DNA of 16,232 bases from a virus (IMGVR_UViG_2802429241_000006:1-16232); one strand, 5' to 3'; positions 1 through 16,232 are shown, counted from the stretch's first letter. Notes: generated by a model from the letters alone, not told the origin. Translations and numbers: made by a program.

Positions 1-1131
1 TCAAATAACCAGTTTTTTCCACTCCTTACCGCGTGCGTCGTTGTAAATATCGGTCATTTTTTGATTCGAATGACCCAGCAAAATTTTGGTATCAATTCCC
101 TGTTCTCTGAACAATCTTTCTGATAAAGATCTTTGCTCATGGAAAGAGGGTGGAGTGCCATTAGCACGCCAGTTGTAATCCACAGAATCCCGGGCTTTTT
201 TAAATGCAACTGTTAACGTTGCTGGTTTAACCATCCCGCCGCGCTTACCCATCCCCTTAGCGTGATGATGGTGCAATAACCACGGACTAAGGATGTAATC
301 ACGACAGGATGACACCACGTCACCTAGGGTCAGATTTAATTTGTCGCAACGCAGAGCCAGAGGAATGGCTATCCGGGCTCCTGTTTTTTGCTGTTCGACA
401 TGAAGGTAACCATCCCGGATATCCGAAAACTGCATTTTGCAAATATCCGAAAGACGCTGGCCCGTCATCAGTGCCAGCAGCATGCCGCGCTGTAAAAAGT
501 AACCATCCTTTTCCGCTGCGTTATAAATCATCATCCACTCATCAAAAGTCAGTCGCTGTCTTGATATCCGCACTTGCGGTTTTTTTGCCGATTCAGCCGG
601 GTTAAAGCCTGGCGGGACATCACCCGTTTGTTGAGCCTCCCGGAAAACATCGATCAATACCTTCCTGAAAATTTGTCCCATTCTGTTATGTCCCTTTGCC
701 TTGTATTCTTCCAGCACCGATACCACATCTTTTACGGTTATGGCATCTAGCGGCCTGGCTCCAAAACGTTCATCAAACACCCTGAGAGGAGCCGCTTTTT
801 GCTTCAGCGTGCTGAGTTTGATCTCTCCGTTCTCATATCTTTCCTGTTGAATTTTTCTGTAATTATTCAGAAAAATGGAAACGGTTGATGCGCCGCCGGT
901 ATCACTAATAATTTTCTCCTGCAGACTGAGCATTTGCTCCATTTGTTGTCTGGCAAGACGGCTGTTCGCTTCTGCTGCAATGGTTTCTGCCAGTTTCTGG
1001 TCAATACTGCCGAGTCCATGATTTTTACCTGTGATGGGATGCCTGTAACGCCAGTAAACTTTGTTATTTCTTTTGTCAAAATACGGAGATAAACCCGGAA
1101 CATCGGTTTTATATTTTCGCGGGCGCGCCAT
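1..1131 (-). CDS. int: Tyrosine-type phage integrase (site-specific recombinase), 376 aa, complete
   Basis: Full ORF with ATG at 1131..1129 and TGA stop at 3..1. Lies at the edge of the prophage module and overlaps the excisionase gene. C-terminal region (LLGHSNQKMTDIY) is consistent with a tyrosine recombinase catalytic domain. Family assignment is from recollection, not a search. Confidence 0.85.
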   Translation of the reverse strand: MARPRKYKTDVPGLSPYFDKRNNKVYWRYRHPITGKNHGLGSIDQKLAETIAAEANSRLARQQMEQMLSLQEKIISDTGGASTVSIFLNNYRKIQQERYENGEIKLSTLKQKAAPLRVFDERFGARPLDAITVKDVVSVLEEYKAKGHNRMGQIFRKVLIDVFREAQQTGDVPPGFNPAESAKKPQVRISRQRLTFDEWMMIYNAAEKDGYFLQRGMLLALMTGQRLSDICKMQFSDIRDGYLHVEQQKTGARIAIPLALRCDKLNLTLGDVVSSCRDYILSPWLLHHHHAKGMGKRGGMVKPATLTVAFKKARDSVDYNWRANGTPPSFHEQRSLSERLFREQGIDTKILLGHSNQKMTDIYNDARGKEWKKLVI

Positions 1132-1357
1132 CTTCCAGTATCCTCTTCAAAGCAGGGTGATCTGTGGCGATCACCTCAGGCTTGTTTACCATTCCGACAA
1201 AGCGAGCGCGTGGATCCACTCGCCAGTGCCTTCCTACTTTTTTGGGGAGAGGAAATATCATTCCGGCTTTAGCGTATTTACTTAACGTACCCGGAGTAGG
1301 GACCGGTTCACTGAATTCCTCTTTTGCCCACTCAGTGAGCAGAATAAGTCTTGCCAT
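1109..1357 (-). CDS. xis: Excisionase (lambda Xis-like), 82 aa
   Basis: Small ORF immediately upstream of int and overlapping its start by 23 nt. N-terminus LILLTEWAKEEF...IFPLPKKVGRHWRV follows the lambda Xis pattern (LTLQEWNARQ...IFPPPVKDGREY). Confidence 0.75.
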   Translation of the reverse strand: MARLILLTEWAKEEFSEPVPTPGTLSKYAKAGMIFPLPKKVGRHWRVDPRARFVGMVNKPEVIATDHPALKRILEDGAPAKI

Positions 1358-1421
1358 GAGCGTCGTTCACTAATCATGGTCGCCGCCACTATAGCTGGTG
1401 GGCGACGACCGGGGTTGAACA

Positions 1422-3893
1422 TTAAAAATCAGCCTGATTCGGGATCAGTTTTTGCCAGATAGCTGAAACGTATTTTGCCTGGTAACGGGCGTCATCAAGT
1501 GCATTATGGCGCTCACCTTCGAATGGGATAGCAGTTCTGGCATCGAAGTCTATGGCTTTCCCCAGCTCAACGATTGTGCGTACATCGCGATCGTTGTGGT
1601 AGCGCCACGGGCAGGGGATCCCCTGTCGTTCGTATGAACGGCGTAAAATCACGTTGTCGAAGTTGGCTCCATTTCCCCAGACCTGGACAAAAAATTCACC
1701 GGAGTTTTCGTCGATAAATTCCCGCAATTGCAGTAGTGCATCATCTAACGGAATTTCATCGGTCAGAAGGGCAGATTGCGTCTCACGTGATTGCTTAAGC
1801 CACCATTTAATGACGTCACGATCAATGACTCCGCCAGCAGTATTCAGATCGATGGTCTTGCTAAATTCCGGCCCCATATCTCCGGTTTGTGGATCGAAAA
1901 ATATTGCGCCTATTGAGATAATCGGGGCATCGGGATTTTTTCCCATGGTTTCAAGGTCGATCATCAGATGAATCCCCGCTCTGCTGGTGGATGTGAGATT
2001 ATGATGACTGTTCGCCTTAATTAAGGGATCTGACGCCTCGCCAGTTTCACTATCGCTGGCATGATGCTGATTGCCGCCAGGGTTCTCCTTGTGCTGATGT
2101 GCAGTACCTTCCATTTCCTCCGGATCATTTTCCTGAACTTCAACCTGATTCTCTTCATCGAATGTTTCCTGGTATGTTGCGTCGCCCATCACCGCGCCAC
2201 AATCAGGGCAGCTACCGCCGCCGGTCTGACCGCAGGCGGTGCAGGCTTTTTCCGGCCCCTGTTGCGCTACTGGTTCAACCTGTTTCGTTTCTGGCTCGTT
2301 TTGTTGCGCATTTGGGCTGTTTTGTTCCGTTTTCTGGTCGTTCTGTTCCGATTCTTGCTGGTTCTGGTTTACAGAATCGCGGGTTTCAATCCCCTTCACC
2401 CATTTCGGATCATTCGGGTCGCTAATCCCTGCAACAAATTCTCCGCGAGAGGCAGCAAGCAACTTATCGGCGTCAGGCTGGCTGATATTGGCTGCCTGCA
2501 TAATTTTGTTTACTTCCTCAGCGGTAACTTTTACCGGCTCTGGTTGTGCGGTCGTGTCAGATGCACCAGTATTTTGTTGTGAACCTGAGTATGTACCGTT
2601 TTTGCGGGCAAAATATTCTTCTTTCGTGATTTCAGTAGCCCCTGCAGTCAGCGCCTTATTCAGACCAGAAAGTTTGTTTGCGCGACCATATTTTTCGCCA
2701 TCCTTATCTGTGAAGAGGAAGTAGAACGGCCCCTCACGCTCTACAGATGGTTCGACTTCCACTTTGCATTCGGTTTTTTCGTTGTCCGGAATTGCCGTTT
2801 CCACTGCATCAGTTTCTGGTACTGGCGACGAGAGAGTATCAGTTGCGCTCTGATTTGTTCCTTCATCTTCAAACACGCCCTTTGTAGTCAGGTATTCAGT
2901 AATGTATTTGTTCAGTGCCACAGGGTCTTTGTGAATGTCGATCGGACGTTCACGGACAAGGCCAAAAATAGTCTGGCGGTCGTAGCGAAGGGCATCAGGC
3001 TGTTTGCGCATTGATGCCGAGATACGCTTCCAGTCTTCGCGGTCGTTGTCGATAACTTCATTTTTTGCCCAGCGATGGATGCTGCCGTCAATGTTTCCGG
3101 CATCAATGTCACCAGGCCACAGAGCGTAGGCCAGTTCATCATCCAGTGTTTTCCATGTCTGTTTGTATTCGCGACGAATGGTGGCAGTGGCTGGGGGGAT
3201 TTTCGCTACTGAGTTTTCAGTGTTCTGCCGGTTGACTCTGGCGCAGGCAAGATCAACAACAGACGTGTATTTCCCGGTTTCTTTGCGTTCGGCTTCGCGA
3301 CGTTTTTTCCAGGTGCGTAATTCTGTCTGGATCTCAGGCCATTTTGCACCCGGCTTACATTTATGTTTAACCCACCCGATGGCGAGCAGCTTAAGCTCTG
3401 AATACATGACGTTAACTTCAGGCATTTTCATCAATGCCTCAACGATATGCCCGTCGAATGTTGCCATGTCCTCCTGCAGTAATTCCTGAGCACTAATCAC
3501 CATATCAACGGTGATGTTTTCACATGTACCGAACTTAACCAGGACCGCGTTCTGTACTTCAAGTGACAGCTTGTCAAAATTGACGTTCATCGGATCGGAT
3601 TCTGGTTCGACCGGAATAAAGGAAGCGGATTCCTCATCCCAGCGGTTTTCCTGCATATATTCGGTATCCCAGGAGTCGATAGCAGGACGGGGCATGCCGG
3701 GTTTATCCTCGCAGACAAGAAATTTATAAGCGCAGTCCTGAGCAGCCGGATATTGCTCCAGGAATTGCCAGGTAAATTTGGCACGGGCGCGGCGTTCGTC
3801 ACCGGCTTCAATGGCAGTGGCTACAGCAACTGCACCTTCTTCCTTTATTGCCTGTTCGTCCGGAATGGCGGCGCAAATAAAGACTTTACTCAT
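1422..3893 (-). CDS. Prophage exonuclease, 823 aa (often annotated exodeoxyribonuclease VIII-like), with a C-terminal DnaQ-like DEDDh 3'-5' exonuclease domain
   Basis: Long ORF with GAGG about 10 nt upstream of the ATG. The C-terminal ~190 aa carry the three DEDDh motifs: MIDLETMG (Exo I), WGNGANFD (Exo II) and HNALDDA (Exo III). An internal CTACGQTGGGSCPDCG zinc-ribbon-like motif and a Q/N/E-rich linker are present. N-terminal similarity to RecE-like proteins is from memory only. Confidence 0.7.
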   Translation of the reverse strand: MSKVFICAAIPDEQAIKEEGAVAVATAIEAGDERRARAKFTWQFLEQYPAAQDCAYKFLVCEDKPGMPRPAIDSWDTEYMQENRWDEESASFIPVEPESDPMNVNFDKLSLEVQNAVLVKFGTCENITVDMVISAQELLQEDMATFDGHIVEALMKMPEVNVMYSELKLLAIGWVKHKCKPGAKWPEIQTELRTWKKRREAERKETGKYTSVVDLACARVNRQNTENSVAKIPPATATIRREYKQTWKTLDDELAYALWPGDIDAGNIDGSIHRWAKNEVIDNDREDWKRISASMRKQPDALRYDRQTIFGLVRERPIDIHKDPVALNKYITEYLTTKGVFEDEGTNQSATDTLSSPVPETDAVETAIPDNEKTECKVEVEPSVEREGPFYFLFTDKDGEKYGRANKLSGLNKALTAGATEITKEEYFARKNGTYSGSQQNTGASDTTAQPEPVKVTAEEVNKIMQAANISQPDADKLLAASRGEFVAGISDPNDPKWVKGIETRDSVNQNQQESEQNDQKTEQNSPNAQQNEPETKQVEPVAQQGPEKACTACGQTGGGSCPDCGAVMGDATYQETFDEENQVEVQENDPEEMEGTAHQHKENPGGNQHHASDSETGEASDPLIKANSHHNLTSTSRAGIHLMIDLETMGKNPDAPIISIGAIFFDPQTGDMGPEFSKTIDLNTAGGVIDRDVIKWWLKQSRETQSALLTDEIPLDDALLQLREFIDENSGEFFVQVWGNGANFDNVILRRSYERQGIPCPWRYHNDRDVRTIVELGKAIDFDARTAIPFEGERHNALDDARYQAKYVSAIWQKLIPNQADF

Positions 3894-4016: not shown

Positions 4017-4238
4017 TCACCATGACTCTGCTTTTACAGGTAAACCATCACGACCAAGGAAGACTTTAATCATGGTTTCCTTAATACAGTGTTGTGTGGA
4101 AAAATCACGAATATAGAGCCGTTGTTTTTTAATGTTGTTTACCGAAGCAATATATGTTCTTCCTTTATGAATAACATAATCACCGGGAGTCACGCACTGA
4201 CGAGGAATCTCATCAGTTCCGAAGTGATGAGCAATCAT
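4017..4238 (-). CDS. kilR: KilR-like FtsZ-inhibiting killing protein (Rac prophage type), 73 aa
   Basis: Protein [22 protein letters not shown]...[18 protein letters not shown] closely matches my recollection of Rac KilR. The ORF track extends to 4250 (MEII...), but GGAG lies 6 nt upstream of the internal ATG at 4238, giving the expected 73 aa. Confidence 0.75.
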
Positions 4239-4804
4239 AATTATCTCCATTTTTACAAATGAACTTTGTTGATGCGGTGCCTGGTGCCTCCAGGTGACGT
4301 TAACCAGTTAACAATTAACGCCGGATACAGAGAATCCACCCATAACACTGTTTTTGGTTTTAACTGTTCCGCGTGCGCTTAGCCGCATTCACCGCATCAC
4401 AAAATTCACTTTAAAAAGGGCGGCAGAGCAGTCACGGAGTAAAACTGATACCGCCAAACGCCACCAGAAAATTGATAACAGAGGGCGTTGTAGCGGGGGT
4501 GTCACTTAAGCGTATGGTCAACCTGACAACCCGGTGTCCTCAACGGGGAAGGAATAACCCCGCCATACTTACCGCCGCGCCATTTCGCGGAGTGCCACAA
4601 CCGGAAGCGCACGGTCGACGAAAATTTAACGACAGGCTATCTATGAACCAGCAACCTCGCCGTGCGCTTTCGTGTTATGGTCTGACTTTTCAGGGAAATA
4701 TCCTTTCAGTAAACTGTCAGTGCCGGATGCTCACCCGTGTCCGGCGCACGCACTCCACCTCACCCGTGGAGAACTCCTTAATCACCAACCCTCAGGAGGG
4801 TGAA

Positions 4805-5080
4805 ATGTCGACTGAAAATGATGAAATCATTAACTCCCTGATACGCCAGATTAATAATTTTGATAAAGCATTGCAGCATGCTGCGGCGCGTAGTGATATA
4901 ACTCTTTTAGCAATTTCATTTCTTGCATCTGTTATGGATAAAAATGAAGTCGTACGACAGAGTCTTGTTGATTATATCGACTCGCTTCAACCCGGCACTT
5001 TCAATCATGAGAGCTTCAATCATGAGAAAGAGCATGTTAAATCTGTTATTAATTCTCTTGTTTTGAATCAAAAGAATTAA
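4805..5080 (+). CDS. Hypothetical protein, 91 aa
   Basis: ATG at 4805 preceded by AGGAGG (4794..4799) at 5 nt spacing. Only plus-strand gene in the early-left region. The 111 upstream in-frame codons of track ORF 4472..5080 begin with TTG, lack an RBS and are Arg-rich, so are treated as non-coding. Confidence 0.5.
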   Translation: MSTENDEIINSLIRQINNFDKALQHAAARSDITLLAISFLASVMDKNEVVRQSLVDYIDSLQPGTFNHESFNHEKEHVKSVINSLVLNQKN

Positions 5081-5390
5081 TGCTTTTTGTTGCAAAGTAA
5101 TTTTCAAGGGGTTCTATTCGAATCCCTTTCTTTTTCATTAACAAGCCAAACCCCTTATCAATGATGTTCATTAATTCCAGGAAGTATTTTTCATGCAAAT
5201 CCTGGTTATCAGAGAGTTGCTTCTCTTCGTACAACCCGATAAAGGCGCGACGCACGTTACCGGATATATTATCGATGGTTTCTTTTTCTACGGTACTCAG
5301 GTCAAGAGTCGCCAGTTGGGAACGAACTATATTCGCTGCCATTTCCTGGAATGGTATTGGTAAATCTTTAAATTCCATCGTCAACCTCAT
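5049..5390 (-). CDS. Hypothetical early-left operon protein, 113 aa
   Basis: ORF in the same orientation as, and tightly packed with, neighbouring minus-strand genes (stop of upstream gene at 5394). No recognisable motif. Confidence 0.5.
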   Translation of the reverse strand: MRLTMEFKDLPIPFQEMAANIVRSQLATLDLSTVEKETIDNISGNVRRAFIGLYEEKQLSDNQDLHEKYFLELMNIIDKGFGLLMKKKGIRIEPLENYFATKSINSFDSKQEN

Positions 5391-5393
5391 CAG

Positions 5394-5609
5394 TCAGTAG
5401 TTTTCAATCACTCGTGAAACGTTTAATGCCGCGCTTTTTGCCAGAGTGGTAATATCCTGCTCCGCTGACGCCAGTTCTTTAGAGAGGCGCTCTTTATAGT
5501 CAGCAGCCCGCTTCAGGTCATTAATGGCGCGTATCTTCCCGCACATCCATTCGTAAATTTCATCATCGGTATAGCCTGGTGCGATGATGATGGGTTCTGG
5601 TTTCTGCAT
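5394..5609 (-). CDS. Hypothetical early-left operon protein, 71 aa
   Basis: ORF on the minus strand, closely spaced with the downstream gene; coding-like composition (MQKPEPIIIAPGYTDDEIYEW...). No recognisable motif. Confidence 0.5.
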   Translation of the reverse strand: MQKPEPIIIAPGYTDDEIYEWMCGKIRAINDLKRAADYKERLSKELASAEQDITTLAKSAALNVSRVIENY

Positions 5610-5638
5610 ACTGATTCCTCGCGGTGCTGCTTCGCTTA

Positions 5639-5767
5639 TCAGCCGTTAGATTTTGCCGAGCTGGAAAGCGCCTGTTTAAACTCACTGAAGCTGAGAGCTT
5701 CTTCGCCTTTGGCAAGGCCTTCGAAGTATTCTTCGTAAGCCTTTTCCATGATTGTGTCGAAATCCAT
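5639..5767 (-). CDS. Candidate small ORF, 42 aa (MDFDTIMEKAYEEYFEGLAKGEEALSFSEFKQALSSSAKSNG)
   Basis: ATG at 5767 with AGGTGA RBS-like motif 5 nt upstream. Start lies 2 nt after the stop of the upstream small ORF. Below the track length cutoff. The overlapping 69-aa track ORF in another frame is Arg-rich and GTG-initiated. Confidence 0.3.
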   Translation of the reverse strand: MDFDTIMEKAYEEYFEGLAKGEEALSFSEFKQALSSSAKSNG

Positions 5768-5768
5768 A

Positions 5769-5924
5769 TCACTCACCTGAATTTCTTTCCTGCCAGCGAC
5801 GCGCACCAGATTCGGTTTTAAACGTTTTGCTTTTGGTATACGTCATCGCGGTGAACGTACCGTCCTGGTTTGGGAACACGCCGTACACCAGAGATTCGTT
5901 GTTGCCAAGATCGATAGTATCCAT
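5769..5924 (-). CDS. Candidate small protein, 51 aa (MDTIDLGNNESLVYGVFPNQDGTF...)
   Basis: Internal ATG at 5924 with GAGG 6 nt upstream. The track ORF extends to 6005, but that upstream part lacks an RBS. Confidence 0.35.
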   Translation of the reverse strand: MDTIDLGNNESLVYGVFPNQDGTFTAMTYTKSKTFKTESGARRWQERNSGE

Positions 5925-6216
5925 GTTGACCTCATTTCCCCTTAACGCCGGGGTAGCGGAACAAAAACCTGCTGCATAGTTATTAAAGTTGAACCCTGCC
6001 GTCATGTTCTTACGCCTCGGGCTGGCTACTTACCCCCTGACCACTGCCTGGTAACTCGAAGTATTGCCCTGCATTCTGTGGGATGGGGTGAGGGAATGAA
6101 TGAAGTTTAGAAAAACGAACTTTTCAGGTCAATGTTTTTTTATCAAAACATTTTAGGCAGGCAGCTGTTAAGCCATCACCACGATGGCATACAGTTAATC
6201 AAATAGATGAGGTTGG

Positions 6217-6855
6217 TTAAATATCTTGTTGAATTTTAAAGCATACGCCCAATATGCAAGATAGATCATCCAGCATAATTGAAGGGTAGCGAGGATTCGT
6301 GGGGACTAAAAGAATATCCGGCCCTTCTATCTCCAGTTTACGAATGACAGGTGTTGTGGTCCCTTTGGGTAAGGCAAGGACAATATTTCCTGGTTGTACG
6401 GTTCGATCGGGATCAACAAAAACTGTTGAACCATTTGGGATGGAAACTCCCCCACCAGATGTTGACATACTGTCACTCTCTAGAACAACTGCAAAGGTAT
6501 TGGCCGGGATTTCTCCGACAAGCTGCACACAAGAGGTTATTGAGGAATTTTTCATATAATCACTCCAGCTTGCTGCCTGCTGAAGTGATAGTAGCGGAAC
6601 CGTTTTTATCGGCGGTAAAGATAGATCAAGCGAATCACCTGTATTTAACTCTCCTCCATTAAGAAGCCAATTTTCGTTTACTTTCAATATCTTTGCCAGT
6701 GAAGTTATGTAACGCGAGGACGGCGCTCCTCCACCGTTCATCCATTGACTTACGGAGCCTTTTGATGCGCCAGTGGCATTGACAAGGTCTTTGCCCTTCA
6801 GGTTTAGCGCATGCATACGTTGGGTTATGCGTTCAGATATTGTTTGCTTGCTCAT
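6217..6855 (-). CDS. cI: Phage CI-like repressor, 212 aa (XRE-type HTH plus LexA/S24 peptidase domain)
   Basis: N-terminal HTH (GKDLVNATGASKGSVSQWMNG). C-terminal S24 signature with Ser in ESDSMS and a downstream Lys (VIRKL). Divergently placed relative to the Cro-like gene, a classic immunity-region layout. Confidence 0.85.
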   Translation of the reverse strand: MSKQTISERITQRMHALNLKGKDLVNATGASKGSVSQWMNGGGAPSSRYITSLAKILKVNENWLLNGGELNTGDSLDLSLPPIKTVPLLSLQQAASWSDYMKNSSITSCVQLVGEIPANTFAVVLESDSMSTSGGGVSIPNGSTVFVDPDRTVQPGNIVLALPKGTTTPVIRKLEIEGPDILLVPTNPRYPSIMLDDLSCILGVCFKIQQDI

Positions 6856-6888
6856 GTTTTGATTTTAAAACACAGATGGTTTTGTTTC

Positions 6889-6917
6889 TTGACTTTCTTT
6901 GGTTTTGATTATTAAAC
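6889..6917 (+). promoter_or_regulatory. Candidate PR-like sigma70 promoter for the rightward early operon
   Basis: TTGACT at 6889..6894 and a TATTAA-like -10 about 15-16 bp downstream, ahead of the cro-like RBS (GGAG 6937..6940). GTTTTGATT occurs at 6856..6864 and 6902..6910, flanking the -35. Prediction by eye only. Confidence 0.3.
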
Positions 6918-6946
6918 TTTTGACGTTCAGTTTTATGGAGCGACTC

Positions 6947-7177
6947 ATGAAAAAATCAGAAGTATTAGGCTATTTTGGCGGAGTTGTTAAAACAGCCGCA
7001 GCTCTAGGAACGTCAAAAACCACAGTCAGCATGTGGGGGGAAGAGGTTCCGTGGAAATGGGCGTTGCTAATTCAGGCAGTCACTGCCGGGGCGCTCAAAT
7101 ATGAGTTACACATACCGACGGTTGTCATTCCCGGTTCTGATCATAATCCGCCTTCTAACCAAGGGGGGGATTCATGA
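6947..7177 (+). CDS. Cro-like / YdaS-family small DNA-binding regulator, 76 aa
   Basis: ATG at 6947 with GGAG 6 nt upstream. Divergent from the CI-like repressor. Small protein with an HTH-like region (KTAAALGTSKTTVSMWG). Stop overlaps the next gene start (ATGA at 7174..7177). Confidence 0.6.
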   Translation: MKKSEVLGYFGGVVKTAAALGTSKTTVSMWGEEVPWKWALLIQAVTAGALKYELHIPTVVIPGSDHNPPSNQGGDS

Positions 7178-9429: not shown

Positions 9430-12228
9430 ATGTGGGGAAGTGAAAACAAACAAAATCTGGACGTACTGGATCCTGTGCAGTTGGCGCGTATCAAAGCGGT
9501 ACACCGGGGGTTCCTTTACCAGCATCTTTACGCTGTAGGCTGCTTACTTTTGGCGCAGAGGGCTGCTATGGACTCAGTAACTGTCGAGCTTGATGAGGAT
9601 ATTGAGCTGAAATCCAAACAGGAATGTCTCTACATTCAGGTTAAAACCCGTTCAAAACCTATTATGCCCAACGATGTGTCAGGGGCTCTTGAGCGATTTG
9701 TAAAGCTCAGAAATGAGCATACTTCGGCAAACCGCGAAGGGGTGGCTTCTTTTGTGATTATTGTAAACCAGGCGCCTGGACCGCTGCTTCAGAAGATGAT
9801 TGACGATAAAAAGCTTCCTTCTGATGTTCTCATTGTCTGGCCCCAGTCGACAGCTGGACGTCACCCGGCACTTCCGCCCGCATGGAGTACTCTGGCTGAT
9901 GCGGCCACATGGTGTATCGCAGAAGCAGAAAAGCTGAAATTTTCACTATTGTCCCCAGAATCCTTGATTTGGAAGTTAGCAGGGTTGGTTCAGCTTGCCG
10001 CCACCGGAGGCGATACCAATGGGCAACATACGTTTTTCACGGAAGAACTTACTGAACTATTTGAACAGTTGATCGTTCAGCTACAGGACTTTCCTGCGCC
10101 ACCAGCACTGTACCGTCCACAAAACGAAGAACCTTCTCTCACATCTGGTGAGCGGATCCGTATCCTTTGTGGGCTCTCAGGTGCAGGCAAGACAGCTTGG
10201 GCCGCACAGGCCGCATTACACTCCACTGCACTTTGTGCTTATTACGACACCGGTGATCTTCCCGGTCCAGCTCTGGCCAGTACGCTGGTGCGCGAGATGG
10301 TTGCTAGATTTACAGCCCGTGACCAAAACGGTTTGCGCAGGATTTTGCTCCCCGGTGCCAGTGGTTTTGAGGCTCTTAGGAGTTTTGATACCTACCTGAA
10401 AGAGCACGGTACCACCTTGGTGCTGGTTCTGGATAACGCCCATCGTGTGCCTGCGGAAAATCTACGGGATGTTCTGAATGCAACTACACATATTCGTTTT
10501 GTGCTGTTGTGCCAGCCTCACGAAAACGTTCGCGAACTGGAGGTCATGACGGGGCTACAGCGCGAGAGCCTGCAGGGATGGAATCTCGATACGGTAGCTG
10601 TCGTTGTAAACGATATCGGAGGATTTGCCACCGCCATGGGATACGAGCAGCTACGGGCTTACACTGGTGGTCTTCCCCTGTATGTAGAGAGCGCCGCAAA
10701 AATCGCCGTTTCTGATTATGAGCGTAGTGTCGATGCTCTGTGTGCTGAACTCCAGCAACAAACCCATACTGCGGAAACCGCCCAAGAAATTATTCTGTCA
10801 CGTGTATTTCAGGGATTTGAATCACTACTTCAGAGCGCGCTGGCATTGTTCAGTCTCTCTGACGTAGGGCTGAGTCGTGAAGAGATTTCTACGCTCCTAA
10901 TCAATTCGCTGAACATTTCACCAAGCAGTGCGGCTTCTTTAATTAGGAAAATGCGCGCTACTGGCACTATTGAAATTTATGGAAACCATACCCTGAAGGT
11001 ACATGATGCTGTCAGGGGGCTAGGACTGCAACATCTGGAACTGATGGATCAGGGGATATCGAACAAAGCGCTACTAGCGCTGAAAGACCTTTTAGTTGAA
11101 AGTCTTCATAATACCCGCAATACAAAACGGTTATCGTTGTTGACTCAACTTTATATTAAGCTCAATGATGTCACGACGTTGATCGAACTCTCAGGCCAAG
11201 AAATGTTTTATGAGATGGGCGTGACGGTCGACATTCTTTCAAGCCTGGAGCGTGCTGCAACATCGGACTTATTGGGACCTGTTCATAAATTCTGGGCATT
11301 GGATGGTCTTGTTTTCGTTGAGCTTAAAGACGGAATATCCGACCAGATTGCTCAGAGGTTAAACATCATGGGAGCTTTACTTGCGGAGCACAAGTTCGGT
11401 TATCAAGAAGAGATGGCCTATGCAATGAAACGAATGTTATTTTCGGCAGAAAGCAATGATGCACGAGCAGTTCAAAAGCTGGCACAGGAAGTCCGCCCCC
11501 AACTCCCAGATGAAGAACATAAACGCATCTTTGACTACAACCATGCTATTGCACTCTGGAGATTAAAAAAACTCAAGGATGCTGAAACATTAAGCTGTAA
11601 TGTTATACAAGGGTACTATTCTTTATTTGGTATCACACCTGCTGATGTCATAGGAAAAAACGCCGACGCATTATGGAAAACTATTAATCATTCCGAAAAT
11701 ATGCAGGAACACTTTAAACATATGGCTGATGCACTGGAGTTGCTGGCCAGAATTCGTGATGCGCAGGGAAAAATGTCACCATTACTGCGTATTCATTCGA
11801 TGAAGTTCTACAATCTGGCCATGGCCCCGGAATCCATGGTCAGGGTGGGCCAAGATCTGGCGGATGAGTTTGTTGCCATAAAGGATTACGACGGTGCCAA
11901 GGAAGTCATGGAGCAACATGTCCTGCCGGTTGTCAATGAGGCAGGTCTAGTACATCGACTGATTCAGGTTCGAAGCCAGTACGCAGTCATATTGGCACTA
12001 TCGGGTCAGCATAAAGCAGCTGATGTCGAAATGCAGCGCCTTGCTCCCTATATCGAAGGCCTCACAGGTGTACAGCGTCAAGAAATCCAAAATCAATCAA
12101 ATTACATCGTACAGCTTGCCCATAAAGCAGCAAAGACTAAATTAACTGAAGTTTTTGGTGCGGTCGGCCGGAATGAACAATGCCCCTGTGGCTCGGGAAT
12201 AAAGTACAAAAAATGTCACGGTGCCTGA
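9430..12228 (+). CDS. Candidate anti-phage STAND-like NTPase, 932 aa: N-terminal PD-(D/E)xK-like nuclease region, central P-loop NTPase, helical C-terminal region, terminal SEC-C-type zinc motif
   Basis: Unambiguous long ORF with AAGGA RBS. Walker A CGLSGAGKT at about aa 248-256 and Walker B-like TTLVLVLDNAH about 80 aa later. N-terminus has a GF-x-YQ motif and a D...QxK pattern (VELDEDIELKS...LYIQVKT) resembling Cap4/Mrr-type nucleases. Final residues NEQCPCGSGIKYKKCHGA match the SEC-C metal-binding motif. About 570 aa of predicted helical sequence follow the NTPase. Flanked by non-coding DNA on both sides. Confidence 0.6.
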   Translation: MWGSENKQNLDVLDPVQLARIKAVHRGFLYQHLYAVGCLLLAQRAAMDSVTVELDEDIELKSKQECLYIQVKTRSKPIMPNDVSGALERFVKLRNEHTSANREGVASFVIIVNQAPGPLLQKMIDDKKLPSDVLIVWPQSTAGRHPALPPAWSTLADAATWCIAEAEKLKFSLLSPESLIWKLAGLVQLAATGGDTNGQHTFFTEELTELFEQLIVQLQDFPAPPALYRPQNEEPSLTSGERIRILCGLSGAGKTAWAAQAALHSTALCAYYDTGDLPGPALASTLVREMVARFTARDQNGLRRILLPGASGFEALRSFDTYLKEHGTTLVLVLDNAHRVPAENLRDVLNATTHIRFVLLCQPHENVRELEVMTGLQRESLQGWNLDTVAVVVNDIGGFATAMGYEQLRAYTGGLPLYVESAAKIAVSDYERSVDALCAELQQQTHTAETAQEIILSRVFQGFESLLQSALALFSLSDVGLSREEISTLLINSLNISPSSAASLIRKMRATGTIEIYGNHTLKVHDAVRGLGLQHLELMDQGISNKALLALKDLLVESLHNTRNTKRLSLLTQLYIKLNDVTTLIELSGQEMFYEMGVTVDILSSLERAATSDLLGPVHKFWALDGLVFVELKDGISDQIAQRLNIMGALLAEHKFGYQEEMAYAMKRMLFSAESNDARAVQKLAQEVRPQLPDEEHKRIFDYNHAIALWRLKKLKDAETLSCNVIQGYYSLFGITPADVIGKNADALWKTINHSENMQEHFKHMADALELLARIRDAQGKMSPLLRIHSMKFYNLAMAPESMVRVGQDLADEFVAIKDYDGAKEVMEQHVLPVVNEAGLVHRLIQVRSQYAVILALSGQHKAADVEMQRLAPYIEGLTGVQRQEIQNQSNYIVQLAHKAAKTKLTEVFGAVGRNEQCPCGSGIKYKKCHGA

Positions 12229-12505
12229 GTCTTTGTACGACCATGCAGGCCTTATTGTCTTGCTATTGCTCTTATGGTTCGCCTTTCTGATTGATTTCAT
12301 ATTGGCGAGGTAACGGGAGTTAAGTAGAATGGCTGCGGGTGCTTGAGGCTATCTGTCTCAGGCATGAACACCAAAGGCAGATAGAGAAAAGCCCCAGTTA
12401 ACATTACGCGTCCTGCAAGACGCTTAACATTAATCTGAGGCTCAATCTATGAACGGCAAATCTAGGTTAGCCTCTTACGAGCCGAAAGGCAAGGAGAAGC
12501 AGGCT

Positions 12506-12661
12506 ATGAAGCAGCAAAAGGCGATGTTAATCGCCCTGATCGTCATCTGTTTAACCGTCATAGTGACGGCACTGGTAACGAGGAAAGACCTCTGCGAGGT
12601 ACGAATCCGAACCGGCCAGACGGAGGTCGCTGTCTTCACAGCTTACGAACCTGAGGAGTAA
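12506..12661 (+). CDS. hokD: Hok/Gef-family membrane toxin, 51 aa (HokD/RelF-like)
   Basis: Protein MKQQKAMLIALIVICLTVIVTALVTRKDLCEVRIRTGQTEVAVFTAYEPEE matches my recollection of E. coli HokD (RelF). AAGGAG RBS lies upstream of the ATG at 12506. The track ORF's 19-codon in-frame extension from 12449 is unlikely to be translated. Confidence 0.85.
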   Translation: MKQQKAMLIALIVICLTVIVTALVTRKDLCEVRIRTGQTEVAVFTAYEPEE

Positions 12662-14918: not shown

Positions 14919-15647
14919 AAGATTTTCACCGAACGATGGCGACATAATGATTGTATTTTCTAAGGAAACGTGCAAAGAGTTTTCCAATGATGAGCCTTAT
15001 ATGCATACCGGTGGAAAATATCAATAAGCCGCGCAGAGTGGTTTTTTTGTGGACATAAACTTTGTGCAGAACGGTAACCATTCTGGTTGCCGTGAATGCA
15101 GTTTTTTTACATTGCTGGCTTTTTTAGATTTGTGTTAGTCATTGATATTAACAAGAAGGGGAAAAGACATGCTAAAACGGCAGGATATGAAGGAAACGGT
15201 TATGCGTGAATGTTCCAGTGTGATTAACCATATCATCTTGGGAAGCCATCCTGATGCAGGGAAGAGGTAACAGTAACGTGCATCAATCAGGCTATCGATG
15301 TATTACCGGTTTGTTACCCATGAAGAAAATTAAGGTGATAACGAAACTGATTTTATAGGTGTCTTGTCAGAGTGTTGCGACGAAACTGGTGTTGGCAGTG
15401 TAGGGAAAATAGTAGGATGAAAATTATAAATTGCTTTAAATGAGCTTGATTTCCCTCATGTTATGAGATATTTGTCTTATATTGCTGGTTAATTATGAAA
15501 ATTTTTGTAAATCTACAGCAATAAAATCCATATTAATTAAAGCACTAGATGCGTTTCTGATTTGTGCATGAAACATACATACCATAATGATTAATTGCAT
15601 CTATAATTACAGATACAGCATTGTGCTGTTAAAAAACTGGAGTCCCC

Positions 15648-15755
15648 ATGAATACATTATATGTAAGTGATTCAAATGAAAAATCTCATGACAGGAATAA
15701 AAACAATGAGGATAGTAAGGGTAAGGATAATAAAAAAGACAACCGGAAAGAGTAA
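15648..15755 (+). CDS. Candidate small highly charged protein, 35 aa (MNTLYVSDSNEKSHDRNKNNEDSKGKDNKKDNRKE)
   Basis: ATG with GGAG 6 nt upstream, inside an AT-rich region and followed downstream by a strong terminator. The low-complexity composition could also be an artefact of AT-rich DNA. Confidence 0.25.
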   Translation: MNTLYVSDSNEKSHDRNKNNEDSKGKDNKKDNRKE

Positions 15756-15790
15756 ATAATCTTTCCTGCATAAAAATACTAGGGTGGAAT

Positions 15791-15910
15791 ATGTCAGAAC
15801 ATCCAGATTTTGATGACCGTAAGCCTGATGATGAGCCCGTTGAGCGTCCTGATGAGGGGCAACCATTGAACCCTTTTTCACCGGATGATAAAAGAGAACC
15901 TATTATTTAG
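15791..15910 (+). CDS. Candidate small acidic protein, 39 aa (MSEHPDFDDRKPDDEPVERPDEGQPLNPFSPDDKREPII)
   Basis: ATG with GGGTGG upstream. Terminator hairpin lies about 50 nt downstream. Composition is less AT-biased than its surroundings. Confidence 0.3.
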   Translation: MSEHPDFDDRKPDDEPVERPDEGQPLNPFSPDDKREPII

Positions 15911-15962
15911 ATATAGCAGAATATAGCCGTTTAAAGTAGGTTGTGTTTTGTTGCTATCCTTA

Positions 15963-15992
15963 AACCACCTCCACAGGAGGTGGTTTTTTACT
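15963..15992 (+). terminator. Rho-independent terminator (plus-strand orientation)
   Basis: Perfect 10-bp stem AACCACCTCC / GGAGGTGGTT with ACAG loop, followed by TTTTTTA. Confidence 0.65.
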
Positions 15993-16046
15993 AATGGAAC
16001 ATTAATTGGTAGATGTGATTGTGTACGACTTATGGGAGGCTTAAGA

Positions 16047-16232
16047 TTATTTTCTGCCAATAATAAAACCAAGCGTTAACCCTATGCTTAGAGCGACCAC
16101 CACGCTAGTCAGTGGATAATTTCTAAATTTATCTTTAACGTTTTCTTTGCCTGCCTGCAAAGCATCGTCAGCACATGATGCATATTTTTTGACAGTATTA
16201 ACTATTTCGTTTTCAGATTGATTTGAAGTCAT
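16047..16232 (-). CDS. Small membrane-anchored protein, 61 aa as seen, possibly truncated at the window edge (ElaB/YqjD-like C-terminal helix)
   Basis: ORF begins at the last base of the window, so the true start may lie beyond it. C-terminus NYPLTSVVVALSIGLTLGFIIGRK looks like a single transmembrane anchor of the DUF883 type. Weak, motif-level assignment. Confidence 0.35.
   Translation of the reverse strand: MTSNQSENEIVNTVKKYASCADDALQAGKENVKDKFRNYPLTSVVVALSIGLTLGFIIGRK

Follow-up and report, generated by a model that had tools for sequence, protein, structure and literature searches.

RecE, encoded by the Rac prophage of K-12, has an N-terminal PF06630 domain and a 5'-3' nuclease of the PD-(D/E)XK/DUF3799 type (RecE 606-866), and recT, ralR and rcbA lie downstream of its gene. 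A different kind of recombination (Rec) module is described in PMC12315714. There, Tritos (Table 1, class B) is the prototype listed for Rec modules that consist of a nuclease only, found in Chi-rich lambdoid phages without anti-RecBCD functions. The nuclease-only module is given for four phages, with 21/6 to 7/2 Chi sites, and the growth of phage LLS, which has neither a Rec module nor the gene studied here, is aided by RecBCD. The paper also states that DnaQ-like 3'-5' exonucleases 'usually inhibit homologous recombination' and that DnaQ-type genes near int are generally not counted as members of Rec modules, and it mentions RecE relatives that have no nuclease. T4 DexA (PDB 8KEL), mEp235 gp30 and epsilon34 gp34 are stand-alone DEDDh proteins of 180-230 aa, and gp30 and gp34 belong to Erf-SSB-Exo-Abc2 modules.

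We analyzed 16,232 nucleotides of viral DNA (IMGVR_UViG_2802429241_000006:1-16232; hereafter, the window), including a gene that joins a RecE-type scaffold to a DEDDh domain. This gene is almost certainly the 'exonuclease' of the early left operon of a lambdoid prophage of Escherichia of the Tritos/mEp460/PPompW type. It is known, common and catalogued: the family, the domains (YdfE_N, YdfE_C and Rv2179c-like, in Pfam), the nuclease-only module and the correlation with Chi have all been described. It is minor as a discovery. It is a concrete handle on the use of RecBCD by Chi-rich lambdoid phages without Rec modules.

Layout of the gene and its neighborhood

The open reading frame predicted from the sequence is real (Table 1), and the phrog_2082 profile covers its product from end to end (1-823/823). 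The gene fills the recombination-module slot of a leftward operon, between kil and xis, with a pL-like promoter at 6132-6104. The corresponding slot, just upstream of xis-int, is that of recE in Rac. In the closest genomes, the end of the prophage lies beside ompW.

The protein is almost certainly a mosaic of a YdfE-type N-terminus, a RecE-family scaffold with a linker and a ribbon, and a C-terminal DEDDh nuclease. Module A belongs to PF27430 (YdfE_N, in newer Pfam), and the N-terminus is 86% identical to the K-12 Qin pseudogene ydfE. Module B has folded blocks at aa 245-345 and 385-435, with disordered linkers between them in the AF2 model. The folded blocks are under purifying selection. We found dN/dS values of 0.06-0.12 in the folded blocks of the scaffold, 0.06 in the segment at aa 466-505 and 0.15 in the DEDDh domain. 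The value was 0.22 for the whole gene and 0.6-0.8 in the scaffold linkers.

Table 1. Features of the exonuclease locus, in window coordinates
Feature	Position	Strand	Remarks
lambda-type integrase	1..1131	-	
excisionase	1109..1357	-	immediately downstream of the exonuclease gene
Chi site	1394..1401	+	exo-xis intergenic spacer
RecE-scaffold/DEDDh exonuclease, whole gene	1422..3893	-	ATG start, 823 aa
DEDDh domain, predicted 3'-5' exonuclease, DexA/Rv2179c-like	1455..1970	-	aa 642-813; Pfam, motifs
Chi site GCTGGTGG	1983..1990	+	scaffold/DEDDh junction; conserved in orthologous loci
four-Cys ribbon CTACGQTGGGSCPDC, putative Zn ribbon	2199..2243	-	aa 551-565
Q/N/E-rich linker	2250..2378	-	aa 506-548; about five degenerate 7-aa units
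conserved RecE-family segment, ...DADKLLAASRGEFVAGISDPNDPKWVKGIETRD	2379..2498	-	aa 466-505
module B, central scaffold common to RecE	2514..3125	-	aa 257-460
module A, YdfE-type N-terminal domain	3126..3893	-	aa 1-256; folded block aa 1-210
Kil-type septation inhibitor gene	4017..4250	-	immediately upstream of the exonuclease gene, within the leftward early operon
DicF sRNA	4418-4469	-	

The C-terminal domain is a DEDDh nuclease domain

We found that the C-terminus matches PF16473 (Rv2179c-like 3'-5' exoribonuclease domain) strongly, over aa 642-813 (E=2.1e-65; 220 bits, cutoff 27) and positions 2-177 of the 177 in the model. The Pfam match to RNase_T was weak (E=6.5e-4). Residues of Exo I (D-x-E), Exo II (D) and Exo III (H-x4-D) are all present. 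Read from the sequence, they are D646 and E648 (in IDLET), D746 (NFDN), and H796 and D801 (HNALDD), and this D/E/D/H/D pattern is kept in 125/125 fused homologues. The original prediction had proposed a full DnaQ-like motif set and the absence of the PD-(D/E)xK fold of RecE, and the domain searches bear out both. PF12684 (PD-(D/E)XK, DUF3799-like) was unmatched in the gene product and matched the K-12 RecE control at E=4e-28, and dissection of the protein with phmmer found no RecE_nuc segment. Structure prediction, also proposed, was of mixed use. AF2 modelled the scaffold blocks and left the ribbon unfolded, and its model of the C-terminal half was poor (pLDDT 53.5), so the DEDDh assignment rests on sequence profiles.

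T4 DexA was the sole PDB match of the domain profile at E<=0.01 (E=3.7e-15). The two share the DEDDh subfamily and the catalytic D, E, D, H and D, and the DEDDh domain of mEp235 gp30 is 58% identical. In contrast to these stand-alone proteins, the domain here is fused to a 640-aa scaffold of the RecE type. Membership in this family suggests 3'-5' polarity and a substrate of DNA rather than RNA.

The name of the Pfam family, taken from the M. tuberculosis exoribonuclease Rv2179c, and the label '3'-5' exoribonuclease' in many database records, often given by PGAP, run counter to a DNA substrate. They would fit a 3'-5' exoribonuclease acting on phage or host transcripts, on the 3' ends of DicF or other sRNAs, on RNA primers or on R-loops. 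DicF is encoded within the operon of the exonuclease gene, and Foldseek of the low-confidence AF2 model against the PDB gave weak matches to oligoribonuclease (probability 0.97, E=0.07). However, the database names were passed on from the Pfam name with no experiments behind them, and the one protein found by the PDB profile search, DexA, is a DNA exonuclease. In DNA recombination modules, the stand-alone homologue is flanked by SSB and Abc2, and the domain here is fused to the scaffold of the DNA exonuclease RecE. We consider a role on RNA quite unlikely.

Kinship with DexA, with the catalytic residues intact, also bears on a possible defense or superinfection-exclusion function of the 'HREX' type, in which the protein would digest incoming phage DNA containing 5-hydroxymethylcytosine, as EcD does. 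EcD, a stand-alone DexA homologue of E. coli, cuts T4 DNA and not unmodified DNA, and its expression from a plasmid gives protection against T4 (PMC12153337). However, cutting of T4 genomic DNA requires W152 and D169 of DexA (PMC12153337), and in pairwise and closer-homologue alignments the equivalents here are H766 and A788, assignments that depend on the alignment. The equivalent of W152 in the 125 fused homologues is, with the same dependence on alignment, H in 76, C in 29, Y in 17 and W in 1. In mEp235 gp30, the W and the D are both retained. The gene studied here is located well inside a repressed leftward early operon and not in the position of a moron expressed in the lysogen, and PADLOC gave a match to a generic DEDDh model only (E=8e-5). 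A defense function of this kind appears improbable.

In T4, the role of DexA is nucleotide scavenging (PMC12153337). A similar role here, in which fragments of host DNA or oligonucleotides would be broken down to mononucleotides for phage replication, would agree with early expression of the gene. However, a large RecE-type scaffold as conserved as this one would be needless for simple scavenging, and a partner endonuclease is not evident in the operon. Degradation of host DNA is not known from temperate lambdoid phages. Scavenging is, in our judgement, distinctly improbable.

The remainder of the protein is a RecE-family scaffold

The contrast with RecE drawn in the original prediction holds for the catalytic domain. 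It does not hold for the protein as a whole, which is related to RecE over aa 262-625. This region aligned with K-12 RecE 278-591 in BLASTP (E=1e-60) and was near-identical over aa 470-625, including the region around the ribbon; aa 466-505 are near-identical to RecE 452-485. NCBIfam PRK09709 (exoVIII) matched aa 219-626 on model positions 243-603. The score with the RecE equivalog model NF007259 was 268 bits (cutoff 1269), with only model positions 243-603 aligned. Overall, RecE-family scaffold makes up roughly three quarters of the protein, and only the C-terminal nuclease cassette differs. The features in common with RecE are the DKLLAASRGEFV...KWVKGI segment, a heptad Q/N/E linker, a CxxCGxxGGxxCPDC ribbon and an acidic tail. 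Where RecE has its 5'-3' nuclease, the gene here has the DEDDh (3'-5') type. Where RecE has PF06630 (Exonuc_VIII), the N-terminus here is of the YdfE_N type, and a Pfam search of it gave no match to PF06630.

The ribbon and the linker had both been predicted, and both are real. The ribbon has the spacing C551-x2-C554-x7-C562-x2-C565, and its four cysteines are kept in 13 diverse representatives as well as in K-12 RecE (C517-C531). It may bind metal, as the cysteine pattern suggests; AF2 gave it no confident fold (pLDDT about 35-45). The linker is encoded by degenerate DNA repeats, detected by Tandem Repeats Finder at 2289-2363 (period 21, 3.5 copies, 71% matches, score 73). Each 21-bp repeat encodes a 7-aa unit (NQNQQES/EQNDQKT/EQNSPNA/QQNEPET/KQVEPVA). 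Linker length across homologues is 28, 34, 41-42, 48 or 50 aa, and the linker of K-12 RecE is two units (14 aa) shorter than the one here. This variation is variation in the copy number of whole units. Because the protein is near-identical to RecE in this region, neither the ribbon nor the Q/N linker is unusual for a RecE-family scaffold.

Scaffolds and nucleases are shuffled as modules. Scaffolds with RecE_N or YdfE_N carry one of three C-termini: DEDDh, PD-(D/E)XK or no recognizable domain. The last group, 'RecE-2' or scaffold-only proteins (YdfE_N plus YdfE_C), includes P0126 and POCJ13 'exodeoxyribonuclease VIII'. Their modules A and B are homologous to those here, and their genes occupy the same place in the operon, but a recognizable nuclease domain is lacking. 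The POCJ13 protein is encoded directly upstream of gam-bet-exo. The scaffold fold matched nothing of known function, and any role of the scaffold in targeting is therefore a guess.

No annealase accompanies the DEDDh-ended gene

The gene had been predicted to have no adjoining annealase gene, a claim that an annealase in an overlooked frame would have overturned. Pfam and PHROG scans of all plausible open reading frames in the window found no annealase. In six-frame tblastn, none of the queries RecT, Red-beta, Erf, SSB, Gam and Abc2 matched the window at E below 0.5. Sak, Sak4, gp2.5-type, GamL and Mu-Gam proteins were covered solely by the Pfam and PHROG scans. SAP, SSB and anti-RecBCD genes, sought in the early left operon by Pfam, PHROG and tblastn, were not found. 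Thus, in contrast to Rac, there is no recT, ralR or rcbA downstream, and in contrast to the modules of gp30 and gp34, there is no annealase, SSB or Abc2.

The same was true of related loci. A single-protein search of genome contigs yielded six loci. We compared 18 related loci, 14 with a DEDDh end and four with a PD-(D/E)XK end. In this comparison, a check of the kind that the original prediction had proposed for neighboring prophages, RecT, Red-beta or Erf was encoded within about 4-7 kb in none of the 14 DEDDh-ended loci. In contrast, recT was directly downstream in all four PD-(D/E)XK-ended loci. The DEDDh-ended variant lacks an annealase throughout the family. The gene does not have the adjoining single-strand annealing protein gene of two-component exonuclease/annealase recombinases (RecET, Red-alpha/beta, 'SynExo'). 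RecE is the wrong annotation for a RecE scaffold whose nuclease is probably of opposite polarity and that has no annealase, and searches for RecET-type recombineering partners should pass the gene over.

An exonuclease that is expressed early and has no recombinase partner might also serve in anti-defense, by destroying retron msDNA, cyclic-oligonucleotide signals, guide nucleic acids or the substrate of an effector. The evidence for this is circumstantial. The protein has no homology to any described anti-defense protein, the family co-varies with recombination genes, and a Chi/RecBCD strategy accounts for the lack of a partner (PMC12315714). We regard anti-defense as very improbable. The original prediction had offered a stand-alone nuclease that was either anti-defense or recombination-related. 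The second option is the best reading, by way of host RecBCD/RecA; the first is unsupported, the PADLOC match being generic.

Chi sites and a possible connection to host RecBCD

We found that the window is rich in Chi. It contains eight sites, compared to 0.46 expected, and none of 200 shuffles reached eight. Six are on the + strand and two on the - strand, in 16.2 kb, with the remaining prophage outside the window. One site lies at the scaffold/DEDDh junction (Table 1). Orthologous loci have 1 to 6 Chi sites per 10-15 kb. The complete phage mEp460_ev081 has seven top-strand and two bottom-strand sites, and tblastn of its whole genome found no homologue of RecT, Red-beta, Erf, SSB, lambda Gam or Abc2.

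The exonucleases of Tritos, mEp460_ev081, Evi, HannyBb and PPompW prophages are all 823 aa, share the module order and align with the protein here without gaps at 86-91% identity (86% over 822 aa for TRITO_27, Tritos gp27; 91% for mEp460_ev081). Tritos/mEp460-type loci have the order kil or dicB-ydfD, exo, xis, int, no annealase, and many Chi sites. The gene upstream is of the Kil type here and dicB-ydfD in the relatives; otherwise the differences are allelic only. The locus thus has what characterizes the Tritos-type module: an orthologous nuclease, no SAP, SSB or anti-RecBCD gene, and many Chi sites. The lack of an annealase is understandable, since phages of this type are well supplied with Chi sites and apparently depend on the RecBCD pathway of the host.

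Our preferred reading, to which we give roughly even chances, is that the gene encodes an early-expressed 3'-5' DNA end-trimming exonuclease that would be an accessory to host RecBCD/RecA and not half of an exonuclease/annealase pair. Transcription, with kil/DicF, xis and int, would start at the repressor-controlled leftward early promoter upon induction or infection. The DEDDh domain, presumably Mg2+-dependent, would trim DNA 3' ends. In replicating phage DNA, these could be the 3' tails or flaps of double-strand ends, for instance. The scaffold, a booster of end-to-end recombination in RecE, would bring the nuclease to DNA ends or to some partner. Strand exchange would be left to host RecBCD-Chi-RecA, because there is no annealase, SSB or anti-RecBCD gene and correctly oriented Chi sites are abundant. 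The nuclease would provide an accessory end-processing activity, for example blunting of 3'-tailed ends for loading of RecBCD. The 58% identical stand-alone domain is found inside the Erf-SSB-Exo-Abc2 recombination module of mEp235/epsilon34.

The RecBCD dependence known from LLS is that of a phage without this gene, an observation that runs counter to the mechanism. The uneven density of Chi among orthologous loci, the inhibition of homologous recombination usual for DnaQ-like 3'-5' exonucleases and the general exclusion of DnaQ-type genes near int from Rec modules (PMC12315714) also count against it.

It is also conceivable, although unlikely, that the YdfE/RecE scaffold is a general swappable 'DNA-end platform' of enterobacterial lambdoid phages, which carries or accompanies alternative nuclease cassettes that set the recombination strategy. 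PD-(D/E)XK with recT would then give autonomous single-strand annealing, and a DEDDh cassette by itself would make an accessory that trims 3' ends and directs phage DNA ends to host RecBCD-Chi-RecA. If so, the DEDDh cassette would assist RecBCD and not inhibit it, the first phage factor known to do so. The Chi site conserved at the scaffold/DEDDh junction might then be a trace of the way in which cassettes were exchanged.

Distribution and naming

Full-length copies of the gene are present in 3531 of 5426 complete E. coli genomes (~65%), often more than one per genome, and viable temperate phages also carry it. These data bear on whether the gene could be a decaying, functionless remnant of recE in a cryptic prophage. 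K-12 Qin holds merely the IS2-truncated fragment ydfE, and there are frameshifts in some related loci (L017, L020). However, the frame here is unbroken and colinear with its counterparts in the viable phages Tritos, mEp460, Evi and HannyBb, purifying selection is strong on every folded block, and the catalytic motifs are intact in every fused homologue. We found the remnant reading to be contradicted by the selection and conservation data and extremely improbable.

Literature searches for ydfE and Rv2179c returned nothing on the protein studied here. Its names in databases vary and include exonuclease VIII, 3'-5' exoribonuclease and exonuclease, as well as 'Exodeoxyribonuclease encoded by cryptic prophage CP-933P' and the PGAP name '3'-5' exonuclease'.

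A DEDDh domain fused to a RecE-family scaffold

We found that the exonuclease (823 codons) carries the full DnaQ-like motif set at its C-terminus that the original prediction had claimed. Residues 642-813 matched Pfam PF16473, the Rv2179c-like 3'-5' exoribonuclease domain, over the full model (E=2.1e-65; 220 bits, cutoff 27 bits), and RNase_T gave a weak additional match. The DEDDh residues, read directly off the sequence, are D646/E648 (IDLET), D746 (NFDN) and H796/D801 (HNALDD), and were kept in 125 of 125 fused homologues retrieved. The profile of this domain had exactly one solved relative, T4 DexA (8KEL; E=3.7e-15), a 3'-5' DNA exonuclease. By these matches the domain is a predicted DEDDh enzyme in the DexA/Rv2179c subfamily; in this protein it is joined to a RecE scaffold.

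The predicted ribbon and repeat were also present. Residues 551-565 (nt 2199-2243) form the four-Cys motif CTACGQTGGGSCPDC, and the Q/N/E-rich segment is encoded by a degenerate 21-bp repeat at 2289-2363 (3.5 copies, 71% matches, score 73; Tandem Repeats Finder) that specifies about five 7-aa units. Among homologues the linker from the conserved KWVKGI motif to the ribbon is 28, 34, 41-42, 48 or 50 aa long, indicating that the repeat grows and shrinks by whole units.

The original prediction set the protein apart from RecE. It was right about the DEDDh domain and the missing annealase, but missed that RecE-family scaffold makes up most of the protein, including the ribbon and the linker. The NCBIfam exonuclease VIII equivalog aligned with aa 219-626 (model positions 243-603) at 268 bits, where the family cutoff is 1269. 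By BLASTP, aa 262-625 corresponded to residues 278-591 of K-12 RecE (E=1e-60). Near-identity to K-12 RecE runs from DKLLAASRGEFV via the ribbon to the acidic tail; the ribbon is shared (C517...C531 in K-12 RecE), and the heptad linker occurs in K-12 RecE as well but is shorter there. Residues 1-256 are 86% identical to ydfE, a K-12 Qin pseudogene that is itself truncated by IS2. Newer Pfam releases already contain scaffold regions as YdfE_N (PF27430) and YdfE_C (PF27432), and the protein is matched over its full length by PHROG 2082 ('exonuclease'). Judged by this homology, the exonuclease is a RecE-family mosaic and no free-standing DnaQ-like enzyme with unusual extra parts.

The scaffold family is narrow: when aa 1-640 were searched exhaustively with HMMER against 1.84 billion cluster representatives, only 252 matched. 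We dissected the 252 into modules: A, the YdfE-type N-terminus; B, the middle; and C, the ribbon region; after these comes D (DEDDh) or, in its place, the RecE nuclease. The modules are evidently shuffled freely.

Module arrangements among representatives (P numbers) of the scaffold family
Arrangement	Members
A + B + C + DEDDh	window exonuclease, P0121, P0123
RecE_N + C + DEDDh	P0129, P0137, P0140, P0251
RecE_N ... PD-(D/E)XK	K-12 RecE, P0245, P0142
A + B + PD-(D/E)XK	P0132, P0188, P0249
A + B, then ~300 aa without Pfam match	P0126 and others

Many relatives (P0126, P0131, P0134, P0136, P0150, P0166, P0178; for example, 5001-7109 of related locus L011) have a YdfE_N/YdfE_C scaffold followed by ~250-350 C-terminal residues without a Pfam match or a recognisable nuclease. 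They occupy the same kil-X-xis-int position, without an annealase, and are probably the 'RecE-2' proteins without nuclease noted in a survey of lambdoid phages (PMC12315714).

Structure, prevalence and selection

AlphaFold2 modelled aa 1-460 confidently (71 homologues; mean pLDDT 84.7) as three folded blocks with disordered linkers between them. For aa 440-823 the model was poor (pLDDT 53.5) and left the ribbon unfolded; its only sensible structural matches were oligoribonucleases, which are DEDDh enzymes.

Relative to the orthologues in phages Tritos and mEp460, dN/dS was 0.06-0.18 in all confidently folded blocks (aa 1-210, 245-345, 385-435, 466-505 and the DEDDh domain) and mostly 0.35-0.95 in the linkers predicted to be disordered, in the Q/N repeat and across the ribbon-acidic segment (aa 549-600). 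The scaffold was constrained at least as strongly as the nuclease. Purifying selection on both parts indicates that the gene is functional and contradicts the idea of a dead remnant, whose probability we regard as negligible. The gene was found at a coverage of at least 80% in 3531 of the 5426 complete E. coli genomes of a RefSeq set; the median genome had two matching places.

Annealase genes are missing from DEDDh-ended loci

Pfam and PHROG scans found no annealase in any plausible open reading frame of the window, as originally predicted. Nor was one present in an overlooked frame: six-frame tblastn of the window gave nothing at E<0.5 for RecT, a second divergent RecT, Red-beta, Erf, SSB, Gam or Abc2.

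We then compared 18 related loci with flanks of ~3.5-7 kb. A RecT-family gene lay immediately downstream of 4/4 genes ending in PD-(D/E)XK (K-12 Rac, phage 673R7, and loci L014 and L018). In contrast, RecT, Red-beta and Erf were near none of the DEDDh-ended genes within these flanks (0/14, the viable phages mEp460_ev081 and Tritos included), a difference that is a pattern and not a formal statistic because the 18 loci are phylogenetically related. The association held for both N-terminal scaffold types. The absence of an annealase is a property of the DEDDh variant and not an accident of this locus. We picture an apparent cassette exchange, with a PD-(D/E)XK domain plus recT (and ralR, rcbA) alternating with a DEDDh domain.

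The DEDDh domain also has a stand-alone version (58% identical); in the Erf recombination module of mEp235 and of epsilon34, its neighbours are SSB on one side and Abc2 on the other. In Shigella phage POCJ13 (L024, 3068-6877), a 682-aa scaffold-only RecE relative is directly upstream of lambda-type gam-bet-exo. A scaffold that is not fused to a nuclease can therefore occur beside a separate exonuclease/annealase pair, and both parts of the protein keep the company of recombination genes.

Chi sites and the Tritos-type phages

The 16.2-kb window contains eight Chi octamers, versus 0.46 expected from shuffles (0/200 shuffles reached 8). They are at 1394, 1983, 7434, 7479, 13144 and 13201 (plus) and at 10099 and 13786 (minus); the six plus-strand sites have the orientation of the lambda top strand. 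The density is about 1 per 2 kb, whereas the E. coli chromosome has one every 4.6 kb (PMC12315714). In the complete genome of mEp460_ev081, Chi occurs 7 times on the top strand and twice on the bottom strand, and no homologue of RecT, Red-beta, Erf, SSB, lambda Gam or Abc2 was found anywhere.

In a survey of 314 lambdoid phages of enterobacteria, Zheng, Casjens, Smith et al. (Genome Res 2025; PMC12315714) found that 22% lack a recombination module and carry many Chi sites in active orientation; LLS, the studied example, grows better with RecBCD. The small 'Tritos' type, with a nuclease as its sole Rec-module gene, falls in the Chi-rich class without anti-RecBCD (21/6 to 7/2 Chi sites). The survey also describes Rec modules that include a DnaQ-like 3'-5' nuclease, and sporadic DnaQ-type genes close to int. 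Tritos gp27 has 823 aa and is 86% identical to the window exonuclease with zero gaps; the order around it, dicB-ydfD, exo, xis, int, is shared with the window, except that the window has a Kil-type gene in place of dicB-ydfD. The Chi richness, the Tritos orthology and the lack of Rec and anti-RecBCD genes in mEp460_ev081 together explain the missing annealase by a known phage lifestyle. The exonuclease gene is one allele of a prophage gene that is very common and already annotated, in a class of phages that has been described. The original interpretation was sound on the DEDDh domain and the annealase, but overlooked that the gene and its annealase-less context had been catalogued.

The Chi site at 1983-1990 is at the exact boundary of the RecE-type scaffold and the DEDDh domain. 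The orthologous loci L015, L016, L020 and mEp460 keep this site, which may be the point of cassette exchange or lie there by coincidence.

Genomic setting and proposed role

By its sequence, the window is the early region of an Escherichia lambdoid prophage, which adjoins ompW in the closest genomes.

Features of the window in map order
Feature	Coordinates	Direction	Evidence
int	1-1131	leftward
xis	1109-1357	leftward
exonuclease	1422-3893	minus
Kil/KilR-type septation inhibitor gene	4017-4250	minus	phrog_294
DicF sRNA	4418-4469	minus	Rfam 76 bits
small genes without assigned function, DUF1391		leftward
S24-type cI repressor	6217-6855	leftward
cro, ydaT, replisome organiser, DUF977		rightward
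Cap4-like nuclease/AAA/SEC-C protein, 932 aa	9430-12228	plus
hok/sok type I toxin-antitoxin	12337-12661	plus	Rfam sok 107.7 bits; Hok/Gef ORF 12449-12661
DUF968/HNH, Q antiterminator		rightward

The gene order places the exonuclease at the distal end of a repressor-controlled leftward early operon; a pL-like promoter match is at 6132-6104. Lambda, P22 and Rac keep their recombination genes in this same slot. DicF is present as in Qin and Tritos, and the gene between it and the exonuclease is of the Kil/KilR type and not dicB-ydfD, making the operon a Rac/Qin hybrid.

The exonuclease gene is thus in an early-left operon, under selection, never paired with an annealase, and found in Chi-rich phages without anti-RecBCD. 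From the sequence comparisons, we give an about even chance to a role in DNA-end processing as a recombination accessory. In replicating phage DNA, the enzyme would trim 3' ends, acting at double-strand ends or on recombination intermediates, and strand exchange would be left to host RecBCD-Chi-RecA. It might turn 3'-tailed ends, which are closed to RecBCD, into usable substrates; in E. coli, ssDNA exonucleases probably make ends blunt for RecBCD. However, 3'-5' exonucleases often inhibit recombination (PMC12315714). The recombination-related role originally suggested is plausible as an accessory to the host pathway, without a phage annealase. The PF16473 family name and many annotations read 'exoribonuclease', which argues against a role on DNA, and a true exoribonuclease is an unlikely alternative.

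EcD, a stand-alone E. coli homologue of DexA, reportedly cuts hmC-containing T4 DNA and protects cells (2025 NAR, PMC12153337). A defence function of this HREX type seems quite improbable for the window exonuclease. The Trp and Asp found necessary for cutting T4 DNA (PMC12153337) are H766 and A788 here, the Trp position is variable (H/C/Y) across the fused clade, and the operon position argues against expression in the lysogen. mEp235 gp30 keeps both residues. DexA-like nucleotide scavenging appears still less probable, and the anti-defence nuclease of the original prediction, for which we found no evidence, is very unlikely. Interest remains in the possibility that the phage supplies a helper for the RecBCD pathway of its host, and in the binding partner of the conserved scaffold.

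Other features of the window

The 932-aa protein, encoded between the replication genes and hok/sok, has an N-terminal Cap4/LmuA/HamA-like nuclease (Pfam PF14130, 2e-6; PADLOC LmuA, 1e-6), an AAA_22 ATPase and a C-terminal SEC-C. From its domains it looks like a prophage-borne anti-phage defence moron, without an exact match to a described system.

A 90-aa open reading frame (4808-5080, plus), opposite to the leftward operon and without a Pfam or PHROG match, is followed by a terminator-like hairpin (5106-5128, plus). It may be a small moron at the position of sieB in Rac. Just to its right is a low-GC patch (39%, 5001-5500). At the right end of the window (15001-16232), which holds only short open reading frames without Pfam hits, GC falls to 35-38% with a strong positive GC skew.
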